Below are positions 3,927-61,874 of a DNA stretch of 63,592 nt, piece after piece. This DNA comes from Girardia tigrina (Eukaryota): NCBI GenBank assembly GCA_001938485.1, contig MQRK01249292.1, positions 1 through 63,592 on the forward strand, read 5' to 3'. The position numbers and the translations under genes are program-made. Numbering within the stretch: position 1 is the first letter of the stretch; each line of letters starts with the position of its first letter. Under the pieces are notes generated by a model that was not told where the DNA came from, made no database searches, and saw nothing but the letters and a program-made list of their open reading frames with translations.

Positions 3927-4970
3927 TTAGGTTGGGGATAAAGAAATCCATTATTTTGGCGTGAAATTCAAAACTTTATTTAACATGTTTCGGATTGTCC
4001 TCTTGGAGTCAAATATGCACAGTTTTGTTGTATAATTAGTTACCATTTTGAAGGTAGCTTCATCATACCTCTCTCGTAGAAGTCTTGGTCCTTATTGGCG
4101 AAAAACTGTAGTAATCGATTTTAACAATCTTCTATTGATCCCAATTTCTTATCACTCAAGAAATTTTGCAATGCGAGAAAAAGGTGGCAATCGCTTGGTG
4201 CCATGTCCGGACTATGTGGTGGATGCATTAAAACTTCCCAACCAAGCTCCCTGAGTTTCTAGCGAGTCACTACAGACTTATGTGGTCTGGCGTTGTGGTG
4301 ATGGAACACAACACCTCTTCTGTTGGTCAATTCTGGTCGTTTCTCATCAATTGCTATCTTCAAACGGTCCAGTTGTTGACAGTACAGATCTGAATTTAGT
4401 GTTTGACCATACGGAAGCAACTCATAATAAATGATTCCTTTCCAGTCCTACCATATTCACAGTAGAACCTTCCTGGCCGTTAGTACTGGTTTGGCGACCG
4501 TTTGAGGTGCTTCATCGTACTTTGACCACGATCGTTTTCGTACAATATTGTCGTATGTGACCCATTTCTCATCCCCAGTAACCACCCGTTTAAGAAATGG
4601 GTCGATGTCATTTCGATTGGCCAAGGCTTCGCAGATGGAAATTCGATCCATCATGTTTTTGGTGTTAATTGGTGTGGAACCCAAACATCAAGTTTCTTTT
4701 TGAATAATGCTTTGTCCAAATGGTTTAAAACCGTTTTATGGTCAATCTTCAGCTCCTGTGCGATGCTACGATTACTAACATGCCGGTCAACTTCGATCAT
4801 TGCCGAGATTTTATCGACATTTTCAACGATAGGCCTGCCTGTGCGAGGTGCATCTTTAACATCAAAAATGCCTCCACGGAATCGACGAAACTGAAATTGC
4901 GTGTAATTATCTGTTACAGTATTGGCACCATAAACACCATGTTAATGTTTATTTTCATGGTGAAACATGC
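3927..4970 (-). mobile_element. mariner (DD34D) transposon, 5'-truncated
   Basis: VVTGDEKWVTYDN motif on the minus strand; TIR ttaggttgggg follows a (TA)n tract. Confidence 0.88.
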
Positions 4971-10079: not shown

Positions 10080-11373
10080 TTGGGTTGTTCGGAAAATCAT
10101 TTCGTGTTTAATAGTTGTTTTAAATGTATTTTTTATATTAATAGTCATTAATAATCATTGACTATATTATTTTTTTTAGCAGTTGGTAATCAAGGTTAGA
10201 TTTGGAAAATTTTGGAATAATTAAAAACATTTATATTTGATTTTTGACCTATCAAAGATGGAAAGCAAGAATCAGCATTTACGGCATGTATTACTTTTTT
10301 ACTTCCGAAAAAGTAAAAATGCTGTACAAGCAAGAAGAAAATTATGCAAAGTGTAGGGAGATGTGTGTAGGAAGAAACTTCCTAAAAAGTGTAGGGCAGA
10401 GACAGAACGCCAATGCCAAAACTGGTTTAAAAAATTTAGATCGGGAAATTTTGATGTTGAAGATTCTTCACGTTCCGGTAGGCCCATTGAGGACGACGAA
10501 GACATAATAAAGGCATTAATTGATTCAAACAGGCGAATAACAACTCGCGAAATTGCCCAGACATTACATTTATCTAATTCGACCGTCCATGGTCCTTTAA
10601 AGCGCCTAGGTTTTACATCAAAACTTGACACATGGATTCCTCATAATCTTACCGAACGAAATTTATTCTGCGATATGCTTCTTAAACGTCAAAAAATGAT
10701 CCATTTTTGAAGCGCATCGTTACTGGAGATGAGAAATGGGTAGTCTACAATAATGTAAAACGTAAGAGATCTTGGAGTAAAAAAGATCAACCTGCTCAAA
10801 GCACTTCGAAAGCTGACATTCATCAAAAAAGTAATGCTATCTTTTGGTGGAATTTCAAAGGAATCGTATTTTATGAGCTTCTTCCGGACAAAACTACGAT
10901 TAATTCGGACGTCTATTGTCATCAGCTGGACAAATTAAATGAATCCCTTAAACACAAAATGCCAGAATTGATCAATAGAAAAGGTGTAGTGTTTCACCAA
11001 GATAATACCAGACACATCATACAAGTTTGGTAACACGCCAAAAGCTTTTACAGCTAGGATGGAACATCATGCCTCACCCACCATATTCTCCCGACCTTGC
11101 ACTTTCTGATTATCATTTGTTCCGGTTTCTACAAAATTATTTAGATGGTAACACTTTTGGATCAAATGAAGATGTTAAAAATTATCTGGAAAAGCTTTTT
11201 AGCAGCAAAGAACAAATATTTTATGAACGTGGAATCATGTCACTGCCAGGAAGATGGAAGAATGTATTGGACCACAATGGTCAATATGTATTTCAATAAA
11301 ATATTAATTCGTCATAAAAATTTGTCTTTTACTTTAATACAAAAAAAGCGAAATGACTTTCCGAACAACCCAA
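10080..11373 (+). mobile_element. mariner (DD34D) transposon, full length but frameshifted
   Basis: TIRs ttgggttgttcggaaaatcatttcg / cgaaatgactttccgaacaacccaa with TA TSD. Motifs WIPHNL, VTGDEKW, HQDN, HPPYSPDLALSDY. Confidence 0.95.
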
Positions 11374-15547: not shown

Positions 15548-15835
15548 GTACGATATGCTTTTATTATTACAATATTTTATTTATAAAAAATATTTAAACT
15601 TTTTTTACATTTTCTTACATTTAATCTGATCCATAACTAATGTTTATTAATGAAATAAGATTGACATAGTTAAAATCACTGATTTCAAGAGACTCTTAAA
15701 TTTAAGAAAGCGGTAATATTTAAATGTAATAAATACAATTGAATATTTGTGAGAACCACATTACAGTTTTTTAGACATTTACAATTATATTGCGATCTAA
15801 TTGTGGGGAATATTTGGAATTTTGATGTCTGTGTG

Positions 15836-16816
15836 GGTGACCCGACAAAATAGCGAACGAAAAAATAGCAGCAACAAAATAGCACTAAATTTCCCGACAA
15901 CATAGCGCCGACAAAATAGCACCGTCTCCTCACATCAAGGCACGTTCATTGATTCAGCAAGGGGAGTAAGCCAATCAAATTTGCAGCCCTTAGACTGCAC
16001 CTCGAGTAACCAAGTCCTATCTGTTCCTGAATTTCAACTTGGATCCCGCGATAGCCCTGGTGTCCCTCTAGCTCCGCACGCACCGCCAGTTCGATCACCA
16101 CCTAATTTTCTTGATCGTCTCCGTCACAACCNCCGCCAGTAGCTTTTTCACGTCGCGCGGGAAGTGCGAATCAAACAGACCATCCTTGACATTGCGCGCG
16201 CTCACCGCTACATTGCAGTAGAGCAAGCCCACTTCACAGTACAACTCGCTCTCCGCCTCTTGATCGTCCACGACCCACCTCTCGATTATTTCCGTGTCCA
16301 CCTCGTCCTCAAGCACGATCCCCCCGGTCGCTGTCGCCATGTTCCTATGCTTGTCCTTAAAATTGTTACCAAACCCGGGCGCTTTCACGGCGCACACTCG
16401 CAGCCGGGCGAGCATGAGCGCCATCAACGCCCCTCCGTCCACGCTCTCGGCCACCAGGAAGAATGGCCCTCGAGATCCTGTCCGAGAACAGAATATACAT
16501 GTTCGGGAACTCGAAATGACAAAACACGGCGAGATGCATCAACGATCAAACTCCATACGTGGATCGTCCTGGCATCCCCGACCGCCGTCCATCCCGACCT
16601 TCCGAATCACATCCGAGATTATACCGACTACTCAAAGGTCCTGCTCGTCGAAATCGCCACTTTCTGGCGATCCACTTGGGTGCTCCCCACCGGAAATCGA
16701 TCAAATTGGCGTCCATGTTGATCTGCCCACATCCGTCTATCTAATACACAACAAATAATATCCAAAACCCAAATTTTAATAATTGATAAATATTAGCGCT
16801 ATTTTGTCGGGGAACC
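15836..16816. mobile_element. Non-autonomous TIR element (MULE-like ends) carrying GC-rich cargo
   Basis: Left ggtgacccgacaaaatagcg and right cgctattttgtcggggaacc are inverted copies (18/20). The left end has tandem acaaaatagc subterminal repeats. Possible degenerate 9-bp TSD gtctgtgtg/gtttgactg (6/9). Confidence 0.65.
16190..16730 (-). pseudogene. Degenerate, internally deleted hsp60/cpn60 (mitochondrial chaperonin-type) fragment
   Basis: Collinear motifs across frames: ANLIDFRWG, IISDVIRKVG, MEFDR*CISP, EFPNMYILFS, then VAESVDGGALMAL..RVCAVKAPGFGNN...MATATGGIV. Confidence 0.85.
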
Positions 16817-17099
16817 GTTTGACTGATGTTTGAATCTTTGAATGTTGTTTTGATTTGGGATCGTGTCTCTTACCAAGATGGATGATTAATATTTGAATTC
16901 TTATAATCTGAAAATAACTTTTAATTTAATTTAATTATTAAATTCGACGTTTTTGTCCGCGGCGTTTTTTCGTATGTATGACGAGGGATATAAATTTTCG
17001 TCTTTGAAAGTTTCTGTTTTAATTTTTAAATCGTAATTATTATTTATTGTTTCGAAATCGGTCTTTAATTTTTCAATTTTTACAAAAATTATTTTTAAT

Positions 17100-17767
17100 T
17101 TAAGTTTTTATAATAACTTCACGTTTTATAAACTTCATGTTTGGGCACTCTCTTCTAACATGCCCTTCTTCGTGGCATGCCCAACAGGTAATTTTTCGCG
17201 CTTTTAAATTTCTTCTTGTTTCTTGTTCTATGAATTTCTCGTTCTGTGGTCTTGGTGTTCTTTTTTTATTTTCGACTGTTCTCCATTCATTTTCTACAAA
17301 CGCTACAGGAGCGTTTTTTTTCTTTTTATCAAATTCGAACATTCTCGTTTGAATATCTTCAATCTCTTCAGATTTCTTGACACCTCTAACACCTATTTCT
17401 TTCTGCACGTTCTCATCATTTATCAGATTAGCGCAGACCAATTTTGATAGTTCTTTTTTACCCTACTTTTTCTTTATTAACTTCAATTCTCATTTCTACC
17501 AGTTCCTTCATTAGATCCAGGATAGATTTTTCCTTTGAAAACGCGGATCTTAGTTTCTCTTCATATGTTTCACCTGCCGCTGCTTCATATTTTATTATGA
17601 CATCTTGAGTCAAATATGGTATTGCTAATAAGATTTTCCTCTCCTGAAAATCCAATTATCTTCGCATACCTGTTAAAGCTCGTTATGAATGCCTCAACTT
17701 TTGTTTCTGATCCATCAAAAATCTCCGGACCTCTGATGTTCGGAATCACGTGGTCGTGTGTCGCCAT
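17100..17767 (-). mobile_element. Ty3/gypsy gag remnant with CCHC zinc knuckle
   Basis: CWACHEEGHVRREC knuckle; GPEIFDG..VEAFI N-terminus; TGGCGAC PBS-like site at 17766; frameshifted. Confidence 0.8.
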
Positions 17768-18297
17768 ATTAAGAACACCAACATGGCTTTTCAAACTTTT
17801 ATTTTCATTACAATCAGAATTGTCTTTTGGACAACTCTCAGAAAAACTCTCGGCATTCGACATCGTTCTAAATTGATAACTTTTAGTTAATGTTTTTTAA
17901 TAAACAATTATTCGAACAAATTTTACATTTTCTGATTTTATTTTTAAAGTTCAAATTTTGTAATTTTAGTAAGAATTTTATCTACATATTAATTTTATTT
18001 AAAAAATGATTTTATGTAAAGAAAGAACATTTATTTAATTTAAAACTTAGTTAAAAGCTATTTACATTATTTAAATTTTTAATATTAAAATTTGAAACGA
18101 TTTAATATTTTTAATGTTTTTTAAATATCTTATGCTGTACTTTAAAATGCAAATTATACTCGAATAATTATTCATCGTGAACATCCAAAATATCAATTTT
18201 CCATCTGGGTGGGAGAAACACATTTCCAAATACTAAACTCAACATACAAAATTCAACATACCATTTTTAACATACCAAATTTAAAATATTCCTCACA

Positions 18298-18960
18298 CTA
18301 GATAAGAGACGGCTCCCGTTCCACGCTCTCTTAGCTACTGGCAATGGACAGATGATCTTGAAAAGAGTCTTTGAATCCTCAATGACCGAAGGTAAGAAAA
18401 TCTCAGGAAAAAAGAAGCAACAAATCAAAGAATGCCTAAGAGTTGACACGGAATGGCTTTTTGGAGAAACCGCTTCTTTTGATTATTTTTAATGGAGGGA
18501 TTCAATTGCCATCTATGCCGAAAGAACTATAAGACCAAAGGATGGCTCATCAGACATCTCAAAACAGTGCACAAAATTAAAGAAGAACAATTAGTCCAAC
18601 TTTTTCCGAGCAGAACCAATCAGTCCAGACAATCAGAAGAAGGGAATCTACCACTGAACGCGATACTAGAAGACAAGGCAACTCAAGTACCAATCGTCGA
18701 TCCGAATGCTGCTTCGATAGGAGAGTCAGAAGCGAGTCCTTTAGAAATCCATCTGGACTACCGCCTTACAGATCTTACTGTGAGAGAAACCTTCAGATGC
18801 CCGTTTCGCGGATGTGTAAAGTCCACGTACACAGCCAAAGGGATGCAGAATCATGGGACTACTATCCATGACTGGTCGTTTCTGACTGGATTTCCAAAGC
18901 GTGAGCGGAAGCCTGACGTCCATGTAGGAGGCATATCGGGGAGCTTATAGATTTATTTGG
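18298..18960 (+). mobile_element. 3' fragment of an RTE-like LINE (RT-ORF C-terminus plus a downstream two-C2H2 ORF at 18492-18950)
   Basis: KRVFES.MTEGKKISGKKKQ...WLFG followed by CHLCRKNYKTKGWLIRHLKTVH and CPFRGC...QNHGTTIH. Homologous to 55090-57350. Confidence 0.75.
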
Positions 18961-19057
18961 TTTGGGTGGACCATCTAAAGAGCCTTTAGGCTCAATATCA
19001 TTCTTGAAAGAAATGGGAGGTCCAAATTTGGTATGTTGAGTTTTGCATTTGGAAATG

Positions 19058-19095
<38 letters not shown>

Positions 19096-19263
19096 AGTAA
19101 GCCAATAAAAAGAATGGAATAAAATAACGTTTAATATTATCAGAATTGTTTTAAATGCTTTGGTGGCAGACTTTTGGCCCACCATGTATATGTTTATATT
19201 ACATTGTATAATTTTTATTGTTTTTAATTTAAATATATCAATTGTTAATTCTTTTATTATTAG

Positions 19264-19298
19264 GATTGCATTACATGGACGGACAACCAACTCCCTGT
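19264..19298 (+). CDS. LPCAT-like 35-nt exon (DCITWT)
   Basis: attag|GAT TGC ATT ACA TGG ACG...|gtaagt; phases 0/2 fit. Confidence 0.88.
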
Positions 19299-22179: not shown

Positions 22180-23445
22180 AATAACTTTTGAATTATATTG
22201 TATTTCTTTTTAATTATAAAGGCATCTTGAAGCTTATTCTTTAAAATTTAATTAAAAGTACATTTTGTTTAAATGTATTAATTGTTGTTATTGTTTTACG
22301 CGTAAGATTCAAAATCGATGTAAACAGCGTGTAAAAATTGTTATTTTATTTGCGAAGCATGAGTCAGTGACTTTAGTCAGAAGAAAACTTCAACGACTTA
22401 AATGGAAAAATATTCCAACCGAAAAAAAGTATTAGAAGCATCTTCAAAAAGTTTGAAGAAACAGGAAGCGTTCTAAATGCCCCAAAATCTGGAAGACCAC
22501 CAATTGATGATGAAAAGAAAAATGAGATAGCAGAACATTTTAAGCAAGAACCCCAGTCTTCTATCAGGAAATCGTTGTCAACTCTGAATTGCTGTTACGG
22601 AACTGTTCAAAAAGTATTAAGAAATGACTTAAAAATGTTCCTCTACAGAATTCAAGCCACGCAACTTTTGTATGAAGAAGATGTTAGACGTGTTATGTGT
22701 GAAACGTTAATTCAATCGATAGATGCAGATGAAAATTTTCTTAGTAACCTGATATTCTCTGATGAGTCAAATTTCCATCTTAATCGCATTGTAAACAGAC
22801 ATAACTGTCGCATTTGGGGCACTGAAACACCAACCGAAACATATCAGAGGTCACAGGCTAGTGAAAAAGTTAATGTTTGGATGTAGTTGTCTTCAACTCG
22901 TGTTTATGGGCCCTTTTTTATTGAAGTAAACATAACAGCGGCGCTTTACCTGGATATGTTAAAAAGTTGCATTATGCCATCGTTATCAAGAACATGCAAA
23001 CGGAAAGCTGTGTTTCAGCAAGATGGAGCACCTGCCCATTATTCACTGATTGTGCGACAATTTCTGGATGAAGCGTTTCCATAACGTTGACTTGGACGAT
23101 GTGGTCCATATATATGGCCGGCCAGGTCACCTGATTCGACATCACTCGATTTTTTGTGTTGGGGTATTTGAAGAATGAAGTGTATAAGAGAAAACCATAA
23201 AGAATTCAGCAACTTAAAGATTTTATTTGTCAAGAAGCGGTAAAAATAGATGGTGAAATGTGCCAAAATGCCATTAAGTCTTTTCATGGACGCCTTAAAC
23301 ACGTATTGATGTCGATGGTTATTCTGATGAATATTATTAAATTTTACTAAATGCTTTTTTGTTATTTAAAACCATTTTTTCATTATGTTTTGCCAAACAA
23401 AGTTATTGCAGTTTAAAACCCGGTAGTTACTTTATGATCACCCTG
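22180..23445 (+). mobile_element. Tc1/mariner DD41D (rosa/VS-type) element, decayed
   Basis: FSDESNF, NRHNCRIWG, FQQDGAPAH, WPARSPD...LD with 41 codons counted between the two Ds. Right end atcaccctg|TA. Confidence 0.88.
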
Positions 23446-24004: not shown

Positions 24005-25323
24005 TTGGGTTGACCAAAAAGTCATTGTGTTTTTTATTAAAATATTTATTATCAAAAAATGACATGGATGCACAAATATTTTTACACGATATACTGTCCA
24101 TTATTTTCAATCACTTTCTTCCACCTTTCCGGTAACTTCATTATTCTTTTGAAGCCTTTGCCTTTGTCAGCAAAAAATCCGTCTAGGAACGATTGTATGT
24201 CATCATCACCGGCGAATATTTTTCTGTTTAAGGAATTCTGCAGTGATATAAATAAGTGAAAATCCGATGGGGCCAAGTCTGGAGAATAATTGGGTGCGGC
24301 AAAACATCCCAACCCAGTGATAAGAGTTTCTGGCGAGTGGTCAACTTGTATGCGGTCTTGAGTTATCATGCTGAATTACAACTCCTTTTCGATTTGCCAA
24401 TTCAGTACGTTTCTGTTGAATTGAATGAGCCAATTTCTCCAGCTGACCACAATATCTGTCTGAATTGATGGTTTCATTCCTCGGAAGGAGTTCAAAAAAC
24501 ACAATTCCTTTAAAATCCAACCAGACGGAAAGCATAACCTTCTTTTGGTGAATTTTTACTTTGGGGATCGTTTTGGCAGGCTCACCACGTTTTGTTCATG
24601 ATCGTCGGCGTTCCACATTGTTGTAAACAATCCATTTTTCGTCACCCGTAATCAAGCGCTTCAAAAATGGATCACTTTGTTCTCGCTTCAAAAGGGAATC
24701 GCAAATGTCTATACGTTTCACCAAATGAATTTCCTTCAGTTCATGTGGTAACTACATATCGAGTTTACTGACGAATCCAAGTTTCTTTAAATAACTTCCA
24801 ACTCTTGATTTCGATATTTCCAGAGTCTCTGCAACTTCTCTTGTAGTCATATGTGGATTAGATTTGATCAGTGCTGTTATTTTGTCGCCATCAACTTCAA
24901 CTGGTCGATCGGAGCTTGGTGCATCTTTCAGATGAAATTTTTCAGAACGAAATTTAGAAAACCAGTATTGACACTGTCGAAGTTTTAAGGAGTCACTACC
25001 ATATACAAAACATATCTTCTTATGAGCTTGCACAGNNNNNNNNNNNNNNNNNNNNNNNNNNNNNNNNNNNNNNNNNNNNNNNNNNTCCCTTTGCGAAAAT
25101 AATGCAACAAAACATGACGAATATGCTCATTTTGATTTTCCATTTCGAATTGACGGTAAAGTAATAAATTAAAACAAAATCCATTAATATTTTGTATAAA
25201 CATATTCTGAAAATTAAGGTTTCAGAATATATAATTGAATTTAAATTTTATCACATCATTTTATATTTTCAAGCTTTTTATTAGGACGTACTCAAAAACG
25301 CAATGACTTTTTGACCAACCCAA
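24005..25323 (-). mobile_element. mariner (DD34D) transposon
   Basis: TIRs ttgggttgaccaaaaagtcattg / caatgactttttgaccaacccaa with TA TSD; HDNSRPH and YSPDLAPSDFHLF motifs. Confidence 0.93.
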
Positions 25324-40729: not shown

Positions 40730-40913
40730 ATAAGATTCAATCATTTCTGGGAAGAATGGAAGCAATTCATGTTCAAGGATTGCTCGGTATAACATGGAAT
40801 TCATGTTGTTAGTACACTTAACCAATGGGCTAATACCATTGATTGTGAAGTAACTCCAAAACATTATGGAGCCGCCGCCGTAATTGACTGTTGGAAGAAC
40901 ACAATTAGGATGG
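40730..40913 (-). mobile_element. Tc1 (DD34E-type) transposase fragment
   Basis: PTVNYGGGSIMFW...MNSMLYRAILE motif. Confidence 0.75.
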
Positions 40914-43900
40914 AATTTAAAGTTCACCAGAAGTAACCCCAACATCCCCCTCGTTTTTAAAACTTTTGAATTTTTTAACATTTCGAATAATTTGTCTACC
41001 ATTTTTGTCTTCCAACTTGTAGCTTCTTTCGTGAATTCTTTCTATAATTTCATAAGGGCCATCGAATCTATCTTCTCTTTTCGTTCTATTTTCCTTTTGA
41101 ATCCTATTGAACCTTTTCGCCAACCTCTGGCGTGTTTTTTTCTTTTAGTCTTATTCTGGTATCCTCCCGGTTTATTTTGCTGTTATCATACCACTTTTGT
41201 CTGTCTATTTTTTTCCCAAATACGACTTTGCTGGACTGCACCCTATCGTCTTTTGTTTCGTTGCATTTATAGCAAATTCCACTTCCGGAAATATGTCTGC
41301 CAAACTTGTAGCATTTCTTTCTTTCAAACTTGCCTGTATGAATTCTCGTATTGTCCGAAACTGTCTTTCAATTATCCCATTTTGTGTTATGGTTGATATG
41401 GGCTAGAGAAAATCAATTCGATACCTTTTGCTTCCAACATTTCTTTTACTTTTTTCACTTCGAAACATTTCCCGCAGTCTACGTGGATCTCTTTTAGTGC
41501 TCCAAATTTTAATATCCATTTCTGTACTATCATTTGTACTATTGTCTCTTCATCTTGTCTTTTAATTGCTGTCAAGCTCACATATTTACTTTAGGTATCC
41601 ATTCTTTCATACCCGTTCGGGCTTGACTCCTCGTAGTCACTGCCAATAATCTCGTCTTGCTTTTTCCTTTTTTCGCTTCTTTGTGTTCCATTTGGCATTG
41701 TGTACATGTGTCGCAATTCTGTCTTGATAACATATCAGCGTTGCCGTGCAGCACTCCCTTTCTATATTCTATTTCGATATCCAAACTGCTTAAGTAATTC
41801 ATCCACGTTTGGAATTGAGCCGTTAAGGGTTTCTTTGTATGGAACATGAACTTTATAGCTTTATGATCCGTTCTCAATTTGAATCTCTTCCCGTACAAAT
41901 AATGGTTGAAATGCTGGCAAAAATAAAAAATTGTCAAAAGTTCTTTCCTTGTTATGTAATAACCTTTTTCATGTGCTGACATTAAATGTGATCCATATGC
42001 TATTACCTACTCTTTTCCAGACTCACTTATCTGTGACAGTACCACCCCTATATTATCAAAACTGGCATCTGTATCTAGAATAAAGTGTTTTCCGAAATCT
42101 GGGAAGCTCAGTATTCTCGTATGTCCTTAAACGCTATTTCGCATGCATCCGTCCAGATTAACTTTTCTTTATTTAAACTACACATTCCTTCTAATACTTT
42201 TTCTTTCTTTGCATATCCTTTAATAAACCTTCTATAATAGTTGCAAATTCCTAAAAAACTTCTCAAATTCTTAATACATTTCAGCCTTTGGAAATTCTCT
42301 ATCGCTGCAATCTTTTCTGGATCTGTCTGTATCCCTTGGTCATTTATTATGTGTTCCAGAAATTTTACTTCCGGTCGTAACATCTTACATTTCGCTGGTT
42401 TTATTCTTAGTCCTGTTTGTTGGATCCTCTCAAATACTTACCTTATCACCTTGTAATGTTTTTCCTTTGTACTTGTCGCTATTAGTATGTCATCCAAATA
42501 AACTGATGCCCCTTTCTTTATTGGTTGTAACACCTTTGTCATTAGTTCTTGGAATGTTCCTTGGACAATTATTTACTGGCAAATTATTTTTGTTGAGCGA
42601 CGTTCGGGCCCATAGGAACGCGCCCCAAAACTCTAGCTCACAATCGTGAATTATGGTCCTTAAGAGGACCGTATTTCTTTCGCCGATACGAGCATTTCGA
42701 AATATTATTTCTAGGTCGTTCGGATGATCATAGTTAAAATTCAATTTTCCATCTCTGCCAACTGATTGCAACCGATTCCAAAAAAGCTTGACACTCTATT
42801 GCCAATTTAAATGCATTTATCATTAATTTTTGAGATCCATTAACGTAAAGTTCCATAGTTAAAAGCCAAGGCATGTTGAAATGGTTTATTCTACAATATT
42901 CTGATGGATAATTTGTTTATTAGTGTGATTAACAAAAAAAAATCGATATTGCTATATATCTTTATTGAATCACATAAACTCTATACAAAATAATTCGTTA
43001 AAACAAAACGAATTTTTTCAATCATTTTTTTTTCTTTTTAATTATAACTTAACATATTTACATATATATACACATACATATATATATATATATAATTATA
43101 TAGATGTTGTATTAATATTTATTAAATTCAATTTTGATAGCTTTTTTAATTCATTCTGAAACATTCCTGGGGCTGTGGCTATGCCAAAAGGCATCTTTTT
43201 AAAACAAAACTGTCCTGTGTTGGTGGAGAACGCCGTTTTTTCCTGTGATTCTTTATCCAATTCCACTTGATAGTATGCATTCCCTAAGTCTATTGTACTA
43301 AAATATTTGGTACCGTGTAATCTATCCATCATTTCAGCTATATTCGGCATGAGGAAAGCTTGGAGCTTAGTGATTCGATTTAACTGTCTAAAATCCAGAC
43401 ACAATCTGATTTCGTCCTTGTCCTTTTTCCACACGCATACTATTGGTGTGTTCCATTCAGAATTACATGGCTTTATTATTTCGTTTTTCTCAAATTTTTT
43501 TATAGCTTCTTTTAGTTTGTCTTCCAGATGTACCGGCTGTCTTCTCGGTTTTTATGTTTATGGGTCCCCCTGTTGTCTCTATTCGGTGTTGTAGCAAGTT
43601 TGTACGACATATATCCCAATCGTTTGCCATAAATACTCCTCCGTATTCGTGAATTATTTTCTCTAGAGTTTTATCGTTTTTTGTATCTATCACTTTTAAT
43701 GCCTCTTGAACGCGATTCTCGTTGGTGATTTCTTTTCCAAAGTTAGCTTCGATTTCACATATGTTGGTTCTCTCTGTTTCCTGATAATTCCGCTCTTTCC
43801 ATTATAATTCTATTCCGAACTCTTTCATCAATGGTATTCCTCCGATCATCTCTGGTCTCAAACTTTTCTCCATTACAAATGTTATTTTTTCGGCTTTATT

Positions 43901-44343
43901 TCCAATCTTTACTATCGTTTCTATTTCTCCTCTGACATCAATTTGTAGTCCATTTACTGCGGTAAATCTCTGATTTGTCTGTTCTATCCTTATGTTATTT
44001 AAGTTTTTTAATATTCTTTCCGTCATAACGTTCAACGCTGCACCTGTATCCAGTAAACATTCGATTTCTATGTTTTCTATTCTAACTTTTACACTCGGTC
44101 GGCTCTGTAATTTATCGTATGTAAATGGAACATTTTCACAATTATTAATTATTAGCAATTCTCTATCACCAAATGATTCTTTTTTTATAAATTTCACGAC
44201 TTTCTGACTTACTTCTGGTTCCTGATGGGGTTTTGGTTCACTTTGTTCTTTTTGATTATTTTTCTTAATTTTATCATTTATATTATTGATATCAACTTTA
44301 TGATTTATTTTATTTATATAATTTATATTACTACTACTACTAC

Positions 44344-44386
<43 letters not shown>

Positions 44387-46271
44387 ATGATCTGGTTCAT
44401 GTAAATGAAAACTTACTCCAGTGCCAAGATCGGTTCCTCGTCGTCTCGACACGATTCGTTTTTTTCTATATGTTCTCGCTCTCCTCCGTTTTCTTCCTTC
44501 TTCATCATCGCGATCTGTCTTCCTCTTTCGAACATTCTTCTGTAGTCGTCTGAGTTCCGGTTTCCTGAGCTTTTCGTTTGTGCATCTGAGAATTGTCGGC
44601 TATCTCCTTGGGTTCTCCTTTGATAATTAGTTTTTCCTTGATATCGTTTATTCAAATTCGTGTAACATTCCTCAGCTCTATGTCCTGGATTATTACATCT
44701 TCCACATCTTACCTTCCTGCATTCTCGTCGGACATGACCTTCCTCGCCACATGCATGACATGTGATTTTTCTTTCTCGTTTATATTCGCTCCGTCTATGC
44801 CCTGTTTCTTTTCAGTTCCAGCATGATATATTGTTTTGCCCTGGATGTCGTCTAACATGCTTCCTGTCGCTGATCCTCTTTTTACCACGTCCTTGTATGA
44901 CGCTCTCATCGCATGTACTGGCCTTTCCATTTCCCGGACTTCATCCACTTTTTTGATGACATTTTTTACTTCTTTTATTTCTTTTACCTCTCTAAACTTG
45001 ATCTCTTTCTTCACATCACTGTACTTCGACCCATGAATTAGAAGATTCTTTTCAATTTCTTCTTCCGACCAATTATGTTTTGCTTATTTTGCTGCAAGTT
45101 TCTTTGCTTTTGCAAAGTATTCTTCCGCTGATTCATTCGTTCTTTCGAAATTTACAGCCTCCATCAGATCCTCCATCAGAGAGCTTTTCTTTTGAAAAGC
45201 TTCTCGTAACCGAGCTTCATATCCCTTTGTCTCGACCGATACATTCTCCTAGACAGGTAAAAGTTCATGAGAAAGCAATTCAATTATCAAAATCTCTTGT
45301 ATGTTTTCTGGTGTTTTAGCCACCTTAAAATAACTTGAGCATGCTGCTATAAATGTTTCAACATTGTCTTCTTTCCGGTATTTTTCCGGTAGAAGTCTCG
45401 CAATCAACTGATCCGAGTTGCTGGCTATGGTCGCCATATTAGGTTCGTGATTAAAATTGGAAGTCATAATTTTGTAAACTTTATTTCTATCACAATTTTC
45501 ATTATTGAAACAAATTTATGAGGAACAAAATTTTAATTACATAATCCAGATCTCAAAATTCTAAATATAAATAATAATATCGATAAATATACAAATATGT
45601 TATTTTATTCAATTTTGTATAAATCATGTTGTTTTTTTGCTTTATTAATTTTTTTGCAATGTAATCTAAATTTAGATTTTTAAAAATATTTTTAAAAATT
45701 CAATTCTTAAATGTTTTTTTTGATTTTTAATCATTCGATGATAAATTATTTTTTAATAAAAATCTTTTATTTGTTTTTAATAAAATTGCATTCTTTTTAA
45801 AATTTATTTTACTTAAAAAAGTATTATGATTTTATTTTAAATAGTGTTACAAAATATATTAAAATCTTCTTTACAATATTCTTTAACTTCGAAGATTGTG
45901 AATTTCGAAGATTTAATTGTGAATTTTTAAAACTTCATTTTTATAAAAAATTTGTCCCAATTTAATTAAAATATTATCATTACTCTAAAATTTTTTAAAA
46001 ACTTATTTCATTTTAATTAGTAATATACTATATGTGAACTATAATTTTTACAAAAATTATTTCGATTTAATTAGTAGAAATGTTACTATAAAATATATTT
46101 TTTAAAAAATCTTATTTATTTTAATTAGTAAATGTTATCTATAACTTAAATTTTTATTTTAAAGAATTATTTCATTTTAATTATTTGACATTATTTTTAC
46201 TTTATCTAAAATATAAATATGATTTTTTAAAAATATCAAAAATTTAAAGTTCACCAACAGTAACCCCAACA
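40914..46271 (-). mobile_element. Ty3/gypsy LTR retrotransposon, decayed (5' LTR 46271-45437, gag, PR, RT, RH, IN, PPT, 3' LTR stub)
   Basis: Order gag, LLDTGA protease, RT (CLDFRQLN, IDLGNAYYQV, MPFG), RH (RKELL, TDHKA, NADMLSR), IN (SSPYQP, GPYEI). PPT gaggggga precedes TGTTGGGGTTAC at 40944, and the same LTR start occurs at 46271. Confidence 0.92.
42500..43140. mobile_element. Secondary insertion (Tc1-like remnant) interrupting the gypsy RT
   Basis: RT homology breaks at ~43150 and resumes at ~42500. The plus strand has FWGAF-complementary and DVRAH-type fragments and a (TA)n tract. Confidence 0.4.
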
Positions 46272-55089: not shown

Positions 55090-57350
55090 GCCTCCCCCGA
55101 CAAAACGGATAACTGTGTATTGTAGAGACTACAGTACCAGCATTGACGTACAGGGTAGTGAGTCATAGACTCTGTATCGGGTAGAAACCATAAATAGACA
55201 ATACAGAGCCTACTAACTTTCTCGCACGGCTTTAGATGCAAGAATTCGAGCTTTCAATGCACGGACACGCTTCGGTTTCCCAGTCAGAAAGGATCAGTCA
55301 TGATCCCTCGTACCGTGATTTTGTAGAGCTTTGGCTGTGTAAACACGTTTCGTACAATGAGTAAAGGGACACCGAAATATCACCGCATCATTTTCTTTCA
55401 GTTCGTGAGGAACCCATGTATCGAGTTTTTGAACATAGCCAAGTTGTTTTAAGTGATTTTCAATGCATGTATGCGATGCATGAAGCTTCTTAGCGATCTC
55501 ACGTGTTGAACTGTGACGATCCGAATCGATTATTTGTATTACTTAACCGAAAGTTGAGAACCACCTTTGAAATCACTCATGAGTCCGTCTCCGCGGTACC
55601 GTCGAGGGTCACTGACACATCATGCATCGCGATCAGGTTCCAAGATTTTGTACATCCTACATCTACGTTATTTTGTGAAGCACTAGTACCAATGGTACTG
55701 ACTTGGGTTCGGTAATCGATCACTAAATGTCGCTTTAACCATTCATCCGTTTTATATGTCTTGTGACAATTTTCCATTGGACACTGGAAAGGTTTTTCAC
55801 CATTTTGTCGCTGTGGCATTGTAACGTATGCACATTTTTCATGTGTCTTTTTAGTTCAAAGCTTTAGTAAAAAGTAAAAGCTTTTTTTTAGTAAAAGCTT
55901 TGAAACATTACACTCTTTTGATACGCGGATGGAGCATTTTCGGGTACTCCTTTCCTTGTTCAATCACTTCTTTCAGTTTTCAGACACAGTTCCTTTGATC
56001 AGGTGTTTGGATTTCTCGTCAGTGTCGAGAATTCCTCTCTCATTCAAGCATTCCTGGTATTCGACCAGATTTTCTTGGACGCCAAATAACCAGAGCATAT
56101 CTTGGGCGATACGCTCTTTCATTAATTGCTTTTTACGGCCGCTGACCTTTCTATTTCCTGAGGCCATTTCAGAGTTTAATACTCTTTTAACCTCACGTAC
56201 ACCTTTTCGTCTATTGTATTCAAAGAATACAATACGCAATTTCAACAGTACCACACGCACCTCTGGAAAACCAATTGACATATCCGTATTACCTATTCTA
56301 TCAATTTAGTTTTACCAAGAGCAGTGTGTGTGCAGGTATTATGAAAAGCTTGTAGACGGGTTACCTCTTTTTCGGGTGTTGCCCAGCACTCACTCCCATA
56401 ATACACTGCCGGAAAAATACTTGATTTGATTAGTCTTTTTTTCAGCGCTATAGGAACTCGGTTACTTTGATTAGCAGGCTACAATTCTTGTAAATTACTC
56501 ATTCCACAACGCAACCGCTGACCGATATCCCGACTGCAGCTACCATATATGGTCAATATACTGCCGAGGTAACAGAACTCGCTCACCTATTCTATGACTT
56601 TGTCACCACACATCATTTGCGATATTCCAATCCCCGAGTCATCAGTTAGGCACATGACTTTCGTCTTAGATGCACTAATAGTCAACCCGAATTTTGAAAA
56701 TGGGCTTCTAAGTTCATCCAGGTTTTTACAGGCACGATCTATACCAGAGTCTATGTACATAGATCATCCGCATAAGCAAGTCTATTGACTTGAAATTCGT
56801 CACCATGCTCATCAATCAGGGTAATTCCGTCATCGAATCCTTTCAGTATCGCCGTTCTGATAACTTCATTGAAGACCAAGTTAAAAAGACAAGGTCCCAT
56901 CAGACATCCCTGTCTGACACCTCTTTCTATGAGAAACTCATTATCCCCCACAGAAGCAAAAAAGCTCTTATGAAATTCCTTTATCAGGTAGAAAATCTTG
57001 TCGGTTAAGCTGAATCTTTTCAGACAGGCCCACAGAACTTCACGTGGAACACTATCAAATGCCTTTTCCAAATCGGTGAATACCACAAATACCTTGTGGT
57101 TCTTATAACAACCTTCTTCCTGTATCCGCCTGAGTATACTTATAGCTTGTATAGTACCTCTCTTCGGTTGAAAACCAAACTGACAAGGGTCTAACATTTC
57201 TTTCATCTCCGGCGTCATTCTATTTACGATTATTCGTGCAAAAACTTTGCAGGTGACTTCTAAGAGGAAGATTCCTCTATAATTTATTCGGATCAGACCT
57301 TGCACCCTTTCCCTTGAAGAGTGTTATCACCTTTGCACTCCTCCAAGCCT
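55090..57350 (-). mobile_element. RTE-like non-LTR retrotransposon, 5'-truncated, with a 3' C2H2 module; small mariner fragment inserted at ~55390-55545
   Basis: NYRGI.LL, QFGF, DLEKAFDSV, GVRQGC and LAYADD RT motifs; downstream CPMENCHKTYKTDEWLKRH and CPFTHC...QNHGTRDH fingers. Confidence 0.9.
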
Positions 57351-59090: not shown

Positions 59091-59759
59091 AATATGCATC
59101 AGGTTCGGTAAACAAGTCAAAATTTTCCAAACCACATTTGTTGTTGTGAATGTTTTTCAAAACTGTGACACATAAAAATTATTATTACCATAGATTTTTG
59201 CATCTATACAATAATGTTTGAAGACTGAATAAAAATAATTTATAGAGTTTAAAAATATAAAATAAACAAACAGTAATTGTATGAAATATTATTAGGTAAA
59301 TGTAGAATCACTGTAGAAAAATATTTTCATTCAATATACGTCTTTATTTATGGGGAATAATGGAACACTGCGTGACCACCGTCATGAACTGCTGATTATT
59401 TAAACGTGTTACGTTCCGCTTCCTCGATTAAGCATAAAATAAGGAACTATTTAATGAACTTTATATTTTTAATAAAATATCTCAGTCAGAAATAATAACA
59501 AAAATTATATATAATCGTAATAGTTATTTTGGGAACATAAGAATAAACTGATATGAATGATATTTATTATATTTGTAACATTTATTATATTTATATTATT
59601 CTACCCATTTTTGAGTTATAAAACCTATGAAGAAAGTTCTTTTATCACAAAAGAAAAGAATCTAGTTGATTTAAAACTTATATATGCATATTTAAAGTTT
59701 ATATTTATTAACGAAAACTTTGTGATCTTTAAAGAATGATAAAGTTTTTGTTCGTCAAG

Positions 59760-59971
59760 GATTTGTAGGAATCAGAAGGTTCTGCAGTTCAATGGACATG
59801 GGTACCCAATGCCAGAATATAGAATACGCAGATCATGATAGAATGTATCGCACTTGTGTTTTTTCCTGTAGTTCAGACGGATGTAACATATCGAATCAAG
59901 CACTTTTTTCCTTCTCTCTTTGCATATCAAATCTCAGTTTACTTATTATATTTTATATCATTTTTCTATGA
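59760..59971 (+). CDS. Terminal exon of a Ly6/uPAR (three-finger, quiver/crooked-like) probably GPI-anchored protein
   Basis: tcaag|(x)FVGIRRFCSSMDMGTQCQNIEYADHDRMYRTCVFSCSSDGCN followed by a hydrophobic tail and TGA. The C..C..DGCN ending is typical of invertebrate Ly6 domains. Confidence 0.8.
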
Positions 59972-60371: not shown

Positions 60372-61874
60372 CTTAGGCTGTCCCAAAAGTCCTCAGGTGG
60401 CCTTTAAAAACACACTAATATTTTACCAAATTTAACCAAATTTGCACTGAATATTATTCAGACTGTCATAAATACTGTGTTAAAATTTCAAAGCATAAAA
60501 TTAAAAAAAAAATAAAATTTTGTTTTATTAAAGTATTGAAATTTTAAAAGTGCAGCGAATTCAAATCAATCGGTTTTTAACAATGGAAGCAAATAAATGT
60601 TGCCAACGTTTTTTTTGTTCTAACTCAAAGTAAAAGAGGATTCTCTGCTTCAGAAATTCTTCAACAACTTCAGCAGGCATGGGAAGACGCAAATCACTCA
60701 GCACTGAAAACTATTCAACAATGGTTGACTGATTTTAAAAAAGAAAAGTGGACGTCCTTCGACGATTCATCAAGAAGTGGCAGGCCGTCATTAATAGACG
60801 ATGAAAAGATTAAAGTAGTCAAAGAAGTGATTGATGAAGCTCCAAATGCGTCTTTGTGTTATATTTAAAATGAACTTTCTTTAGGCAAAAATACAGTCCA
60901 CAATATTTTGCGTGAAAAACTTCATTACGAAAAAGTTTGCTCTGTATGGGTCCCTCACGAACTTTGTGCTGCTAATAAACAACAACGCATTAACACTGCA
61001 AAGCATATACGCTATGTAATTTCACAGGTGGGTGATGAAGCATATTCCAACATAGCGATCGAGAATGAGACATGGGTATTTTTTCATGGTAGAGGAAAGA
61101 AAGAAGATCGCAAAATTTGGATTCCTTCTAATACTGTTCCACCAAAAGTGATAAAGTCATCGCCAATGACTGATAAAAAATCTCTTGTTTTCGTAACCTT
61201 TACCTGCAACAAACGTTTTAATGTAAAAACACTGCCATATGGTACCAAGATTGATTCCGAGGCGTATGTGAATTTTGTTCATGACACCGGTGAAAAATGG
61301 CGGAAACTTAGATCTAACAGCATCAAGCTAAAGGAACTTAAATGGTGGCATGATAATGCAAGACCTCATTCTAGCAAAGAAACAACTCTTTTTTTTGAAA
61401 GAAGAAAAATTGAAAAAAATTATCAATCGCCCTATAGTCCAGATTTTAATCTGTGTGACAGATTCTTATTTTCAAAAATGAAGAAAAATTTTAAAACTCA
61501 TGTTTTCAAATCACATGAAGAAATTGAAGAAGCTTGTAAATTCTTTTTTAATTCTCTATCAACAGAAACATTAAAAAATCAACTAGATAAACTTTTTAAC
61601 TATTGTCAGTTGGTTATTGACAACAATGGTGAATATGTTGTTGCTTAAGAAATTTTTAAAATATTTTTTTTAAATAAATTTTTAAATTCGCTGCATCTAA
61701 TTTTTTTTTGTTGGTTAATAATATAATTTTTTGGTAAGTTTGATATTTTATGCTTTGAAATTTTAACACAGTATTTATGACAGTCTGAATAATATTCAGT
61801 GCAAATTTGGTTAAATTTGGTAAAATATTAGTGTGTTTTTAAAGGTCACCTGAGGACTTTTGGGACAGCCTAAG
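60372..61874 (+). mobile_element. mariner-like DD34D element with ~130-bp near-perfect TIRs
   Basis: TIR cttaggctgtcccaaaagtcctcagg...aaagcataaaa at both ends with TA TSD. Motifs WVPHEL, HDNARPH, SPYSPDFNLCD (34 spacing). N-terminal frameshift and stop. Confidence 0.93.

Follow-up and report, generated by a model that had tools for sequence, protein, structure and literature searches.

Results

The element and its locus

The window, by which we mean the whole stretch of 63,592 nucleotides that was analysed, contains an acyltransferase gene on its forward strand, and the element described here lies inside one of the introns of this gene (Table 1). In two RNA-type contigs, position 15548 is followed immediately by the exon at 19267, and the only Pfam match of the upstream exon is Acyltransferase (PF01553), in agreement with the antisense position within an acyltransferase intron that an earlier note, made from the letters alone, had proposed for the cargo. 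We call the gene LPCAT-like, a name that comes from that note and from the reading of the translation. The element is closed by 20-nt inverted arms (15836-15855 and 16797-16816 in the window sequence) that are 90% complementary, and a subterminal repeat stands in three tandem copies in the left arm, as had been described. The 13-nt core occurs four times in the window, always inside the element, a number reached in none of 100 shuffles. Between the ends, the GC content of 15930-16740 is 0.545 compared with 0.301 for the window, with 67 CpG dinucleotides, which confirms the impression of a CpG-rich island of roughly 55% GC in an AT-rich background.

Both LTRs of the window copy are gone save 16 nt, and its anatomy was read from sister copies. 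The remainder of the 5′ LTR and the primer site have been deleted, the whole 5′ LTR being retained in L187/L197. At the opposite end of the cargo, the purine-rich 9-mer at 15924-15932 is possibly a remnant of the polypurine tract. The segment next to it is 92% identical to L187 over 63 nt, and the first ~45 nt of the GC-rich segment that follows are common to free LTR-hsp60 elements; for the remaining ~185 nt, no source outside the family emerged from the fetched loci, whether by nucleotide, translated or profile search. Three alignments of the 9-nt duplication of the window copy with paralogous empty flanks were too variable.

The insertion site of the MULE lies in a further repeat of very high abundance (window 15770-15835 and 16817-17900), and a zinc-knuckle gag-like frame is found at 17103-17462 on the minus strand. 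The same intron holds a C2H2 zinc-finger frame (18483-18947, plus strand). Elsewhere in the window there are a weak Quiver/Ly-6-like exon (59726-59968, plus strand) and fragments of coding sequence that resemble Tc1/mariner, Gypsy and LINE elements, all of them broken and recognised by eye in the translations.

Table 1. Coordinates of the features at the locus and of related copies (nt; window positions unless a contig is named).
Feature	Position	Strand	Remarks
Acyltransferase (LPCAT-like) intron containing the element	15549..19266	+	Spliced by RNA-type contigs of two runs; PF01553 in upstream exon
Left copy of MULE target-site duplication, decayed	15827..15835	+	6/9 identical to 16817-16825; perfect 9-mers in sister copies
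Left terminal inverted repeat of MULE, including tandem subterminal repeats	15836..15923	+	First 20 nt found exactly 112 times in the genome
Junction of copy-specific deletion (3′ LTR and inner MULE arm lost)	15924..15932	-	Polypurine tract and whole LTR here in L002 and L009
3′ internal region of LTR element, up to start of polypurine tract	15933..16049	-	Matches sequence preceding 3′ LTR in free LTR elements
GC-rich internal segment of LTR element	16050..16280	-	Also in two-LTR copy L187
Fragment of hsp60, decayed and internally deleted (approximately nt 370-999 of host CDS)	16281..16737	-	Blocks 71-80% identical in nucleotides to host CDS
First 16 nt of 5′ LTR, beginning TG	16738..16753	-	15/16 identical to 3′ LTR start of L002
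One TTATT copy of the 5-nt duplication from LTR insertion into MULE	16754..16758	-	Second copy follows 3′ LTR in sister copies
Right arm of MULE, including terminal inverted repeat	16759..16816	+	Identical arm type in empty MULEs
Right copy of MULE target-site duplication	16817..16825	+	Pairs with 15827-15835
Broken transposon-like coding fragments	1724-2303, 4460-4941, 10357-11296, 22377-23300, 24085-25033, 60581-61645; 40884-45515; 56754-57323		By-eye translations
Permuted hsp60 copies (assembly G000)	L039 C123693, L043 C122537, L045 C246847, L049 C143015, L058 C241742, L059 C236906, L112 C9346		

Is the element really in place at this locus? An assembly chimera would be conceivable, since the assembly is fragmented. 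Pieces that cross the left junction reach only 28 letters into the element, under the 31-letter rule; among the matches listed, no contig crosses the right junction and none spans the whole element. Support for the two junctions, whose confirmation the earlier note had called for, is incomplete. Against a chimera, contigs of two DNA runs lead from 15200 to within the left repeat, overlapping pieces from DNA runs match the interior of the element with 0-2 differences, a partial duplication flanks it and the same structure recurs in differing surroundings at dozens of loci. We consider a chimera at this locus hardly credible, and a local misassembly would leave the family-level result unchanged.

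In two DNA runs, contigs of the cargo reach hundreds of times the depth of the flank, a ratio that agrees with a multicopy family and does not represent a copy number. Contigs identical to the own variant of the window copy (15839-16768) are found at ~3-6 times flank depth in two DNA runs, which gives a weak hint that near-identical copies might be missing from the assembly. No RNA data holding the cargo were found among the matches listed; a 161-nt contig overlaps the cargo and the run from which it comes is only guessed to be RNA, so that it is not evidence of expression.

The cargo derives from the hsp60 gene of the host

On the minus strand, a search of PDB sequences gave mitochondrial hsp60 structures as the best solved relatives of the cargo (E about 2e-11 to 2e-10), which upholds the decayed mitochondrial-type hsp60 of the earlier note. 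The similarity is restricted to 16281-16737, and does not run through the island as had been thought. The fragment is broken by stops and deletions and a Pfam scan of it returned no family; stretches of 28/31 and 20/21 nt still match the host hsp60.

The host mitochondrial hsp60 lies on contigs C208968 and C176787. The earlier note had suggested a possible foreign donor because the codons of the cargo end in G/C, in contrast to those of the host acyltransferase exons. The host hsp60 turned out to be equally GC-rich (0.577 for the CDS and 0.767 for GC3), and it is interrupted by a GT-AG intron of 813 nt with 26% GC. To score donors, 122 hsp60 proteins were compared, namely the host gene, a divergent paralogue and 120 others chosen for their similarity to the host gene. 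The host hsp60 ranks first of the 122 for 19 of 20 copies and joint first for the window copy, which scores equally against one other hsp60 (P0017). The donor of the cargo is the host's own hsp60. Decayed copies of hsp60 are numerous elsewhere in the genome, and these too match the host gene.

Horizontal transfer of hsp60 from a prey organism, parasite or symbiont of high GC content, or a GC-rich "host" gene that is itself foreign or a contaminant, would fit the contrast in codon usage (GC3 of 0.23 in the acyltransferase exon compared with 0.77 in hsp60), the tie with P0017 and the fact that the comparison proteins were picked for likeness to the host gene. The contrast is real, but it reflects differences between genes of the host. 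The GC-rich hsp60 carries its AT-rich spliceosomal intron on a contig of 29% GC that has a repeat in common with the window, its closest named relatives are flatworm proteins (84-86%), and both the ranking of the copies and the other decayed copies in the genome point to it. Taken together, a foreign origin is most improbable. The flatworm relatives and the AT-rich genome suggest that the host is a free-living planarian. The missing introns, another feature noticed in the earlier note, are uninformative: the window copy is indeed intronless, and its fragment lies within the long first exon of the host hsp60.

A second, strongly diverged hsp60 (L031; G000:C245852:7958-9436, minus strand) has an open frame of 493 codons and a GC3 of 0.37; as a donor it was rejected, with ranks of 121-122 among the 122 proteins. 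The genome also contains a partial duplicate of hsp60 exon 1 that is 92% near-identical and has small deletions (L037; G000:C233846:669-1221, minus strand), and permuted copies that run from the C-terminal part on into the N-terminal part, the latter beginning at about CDS position 135 (Table 1). The two parts are joined where both gene ends encode a similar LADA stretch, and several of these permuted copies are LTR-bound.

The carrier is a dispersed Mutator-type transposon

A search of the host genome gave 710 first-look candidates, 40 of which were scored, and the best 29 sister loci are 72-81% identical. With a 251-nt inner piece of the element, 266 candidates were obtained. The paired ends that the earlier note had suggested to look for elsewhere in the assembly are found at 22 distinct loci, the window copy included, with different flanks and duplications. 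After merging rows that gave one locus in both orientations, clear target duplications of 9-10 nt were present at 17 of these 22 loci (15 with at least 8/9 and two with 10/10), five being under the threshold, the window copy with its 6/9 among them. Mismatched pairings, used as control, reach 8/9 in only 9 of 1406 cases. Perfect 9-mers in sister copies agree with the possible decayed 9-bp duplication that had been noted at the element.

The MULE-type ends that had been claimed also hold, as relatives bearing these ends contain a MULE transposase domain. Locus L237, which was reached via a protein search using a transposase remnant, has the terminal motif of the family at its start and scores above the cut-off for PF10551 (MULE; E 4e-8), the only one of 12 scanned frames to do so, with two more below it. 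Transposase remnants are present in the cargo-free elements with the same ends L089, L095 and L096 and in L243, in which a stretch seen by eye is presumably FLYWCH-like. Of the 38 loci examined, none held an autonomous MULE that is intact and has exactly these ends. The family has terminal inverted repeats, ends in common with elements that encode a MULE transposase, and target duplications within the 8-11 nt given for MULEs in the available part of a published account (PMC6446971). The carrier is a non-autonomous Mutator-type DNA transposon (MULE).

Short MITE-like elements that are AT-rich and lack hsp60 begin with the left end of the family too (L070, L073, L076, L079, L084 and L085). A Hus1-like coding fragment is found just upstream of a MULE end in L237 (L237:515-928).

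The cargo is an LTR element nested in the MULE

How did a host gene fragment come to lie between MULE ends? Other hsp60 fragments in the genome sit between direct repeats of ~100 nt that have TG...CA ends, together with a polypurine tract and 5-nt duplications (perfect 5-mers at L055 and L067, none at L065), and a conserved motif follows the 5′ repeat in these free LTR-hsp60 elements. The same organization is found within MULE arms. The copy L187/L197 (contig C238729), whose two LTRs are identical at 81/94 positions and of the same type as those of the free element L206, shows in order a MULE arm, TTATT, the 5′ LTR, a primer-like motif, a longer hsp60 piece, the inner segments, the polypurine tract, the 3′ LTR, TTGTT and a MULE arm. 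Only one MULE end of L187 is recognisable, and this end is decayed. In L002, L004, L009, L026 and L030 the 3′ LTR inside the MULE arms is in each case followed by TTATT; this count is partly circular because the motif used to search for the 3′ LTR end included TTATT with up to 4 mismatches; neither L187 nor the empty sites depend on that motif. In the empty MULEs L089, L095 and L096, TTATT is single and both flanks are contiguous. The TG...CA ends of the cargo, the 5-nt duplication and the undisturbed empty site indicate integrase-mediated insertion. In L187, two TG...CA LTRs, a polypurine tract and a duplication within the 4-6 nt range are features of the TRIM/LARD type, of which the window copy retains only remnants.

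These observations bear directly on the Pack-MULE capture proposed in the earlier note. According to such an explanation, a MULE would have copied genomic hsp60 or LTR-hsp60 DNA by gap repair or template switching. MULE ends, multiple copies and GC-rich cargo are as reported for multicopy Pack-TIRs in the accessible portion of that work (PMC8277862), and a fragment from inside a single exon does not exclude capture of DNA. However, the cargo starts and ends exactly at LTR termini, is flanked on either side by 5 nt of duplicated MULE sequence and corresponds to an undisturbed empty site, and its deletions are common to free LTR elements. Direct capture is largely refuted by the filled and empty sites, and we regard it as very improbable: the MULE carries an LTR element whose insertion gave rise to a separate duplication of 5 nt.

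Which retrotransposon could have mobilized the LTR-hsp60 elements? The motif after the 5′ LTR has 407 exact matches in the genome, and of 23 sampled matches with at least 300 nt downstream, two carry hsp60 and most others appear gag-like by eye. Broken copies sharing the motif encode a protease followed by RVT_1 (L287), an RNase H (L280) or an integrase core (L256 and L263); protease, RT, RNase H and integrase were never all found within one copy, and no intact helper was present among the loci fetched. This motif-sharing gag-protease-RT group is likely the helper of the LTR-hsp60 elements and may be of Ty3/Gypsy-type or BEL/Pao class. A 5′ fragment of tRNA-Phe was rejected as primer, as none of its four exact matches lies in a tRNA or an Rfam family. 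In this group of short-LTR retroelements (e.g. L250-L279) the conserved motif after the 5′ LTR is without the usual TGG start, and no tRNA partner was found for it.

Shared descent, probable RNA origin and decay

Four deletions (8, 22, 3 and 47 nt) are common to the MULE-borne copies, the LTR-bound family B and the free copy L065. At 67 of 352 columns both families have the same non-host base, against about 13 expected. In a tree of nine MULE-borne, seven LTR-type and three other copies plus the host gene, transposon-borne and LTR-borne copies form one clade with a support of 98; the node joining the MULE-borne family with family B alone is weak (support 56), as is the inner order of the clade. 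The junction of hsp60 exons 1 and 2 is crossed without gap by four distinct loci, three of which carry a related LTR. These four loci are processed copies.

Differences among nine copies are mostly from G/C to A/T (270 of 353). Within the cargo, differences are more frequent at third codon positions (0.128) than at the other two (0.095 and 0.077); given the frameshifts and stops, this excess is attributed to the richness of third positions in G/C and no coding selection is proposed.

Discussion

Our results lead to a reading of the element that we hold with high confidence: it is very probably a non-autonomous MULE into which a non-autonomous LTR element has inserted, the latter carrying a decayed fragment of the host hsp60 that is likely derived from mRNA. 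A model of the history would comprise five steps: i) during reverse transcription, an LTR retrotransposon of the gag-protease-RT group likely changed its template to hsp60 mRNA, an origin proposed because related LTR-bound copies show intron loss; ii) the LTR-hsp60 lineage continued to retrotranspose and gathered deletions, as the shared deletions document; iii) one LTR-hsp60 copy integrated at TTATT ~60 nt inside one end of an internally deleted MULE, to which the filled and empty sites bear witness; iv) the composite evidently spread to many sites with different 9-nt duplications, with MULE transposase, and reverse transcriptase for the LTR lineage, presumably supplied in trans, and with further deletions by which most of the 5′ LTR would have been lost before the main burst; and v) the copies now decay towards AT, likely in a neutral manner. 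The window copy would be one of these composite insertions, spliced out with the intron, and it likely has no function.

An improbable extension of this model is that the hsp60 copies, many of which lie within introns in antisense orientation, supply the piRNA pathway, and that the resulting small RNAs tune the hsp60 mRNA of the host. If it were true, a transposon relay (hundreds of copies, two kinds of transposon) would have wired an essential chaperone into transposon silencing.

Comparison with known systems

Among the papers listed in our literature searches, we found no MULE-amplified LTR retrocopy, no hsp60-bearing flatworm transposon and nothing relevant on planarian codon usage. As far as the accessible sections of the papers tell, one of the closest precedents is that of vespertilionid bats, in which retrogenes nested in Helitrons were then amplified (PMC4224331). 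Both cases have in common an mRNA copy in a DNA transposon, its own target duplication, empty sites and amplification by the carrier. In bats, the copies are of the LINE-1 type with poly-A and were spread by a rolling-circle Helitron (118 copies in four cases), whereas here a MULE, which moves by cut and paste, carries an LTR-bounded retrocopy. Retroposition mediated by LTRs, with secondary rounds, is also known in animals (PMC5131818) and, like the elements described here, involves a partial mRNA between LTRs that is non-autonomous and undergoes more rounds of retroposition. The cases in the available text of that study are young and reported there without carriage by a DNA transposon; in contrast, the lineage found here is old, comprises several LTR subfamilies, and one of its branches changed carrier.

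Regarding the LTR unit itself, ta-TRIM of taeniid tapeworms (a TRIM/LARD element) resembles it in its short TG...CA LTRs, polypurine tract, length under 4 kb, lack of intact coding sequence and a helper with a common primer site, according to the portions consulted (PMC4558846). It differs from ta-TRIM in having an hsp60-derived interior, and no tRNA partner was found for the site after the 5′ LTR. With regard to the carrier, target duplications of 8-10 nt, short TIRs, a presumably FLYWCH-like region and flatworm hosts are likenesses to the Phantom group of invertebrate MULEs (PMC6446971), of which the carrier may be a candidate member. Like Pack-MULEs and animal Pack-TIRs, the element has a GC-rich host gene fragment between TIRs and is present in many copies with distinct target duplications; yet Pack-TIRs take up their cargo as DNA, through gap filling or fork switching (PMC8277862), whereas here it entered by LTR integration. 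The element thus behaves like a multicopy Pack-TIR and departs from one in that its cargo was not captured as DNA.

Although both steps, an LTR retrocopy and the amplification of a nested retrogene by a DNA transposon, have precedents, the family described here represents a clean and fully staged case of a host mRNA fragment that left a retroelement for a DNA transposon of the cut-and-paste kind, and the parent gene, the free LTR copies, the intact nested intermediate, the empty carriers and the amplified derivative are all found in one genome. It also gives a warning: in AT-rich animals, apparent Pack-MULEs or GC-rich horizontal transfers can be nested retrocopies of host genes that are themselves GC-rich.
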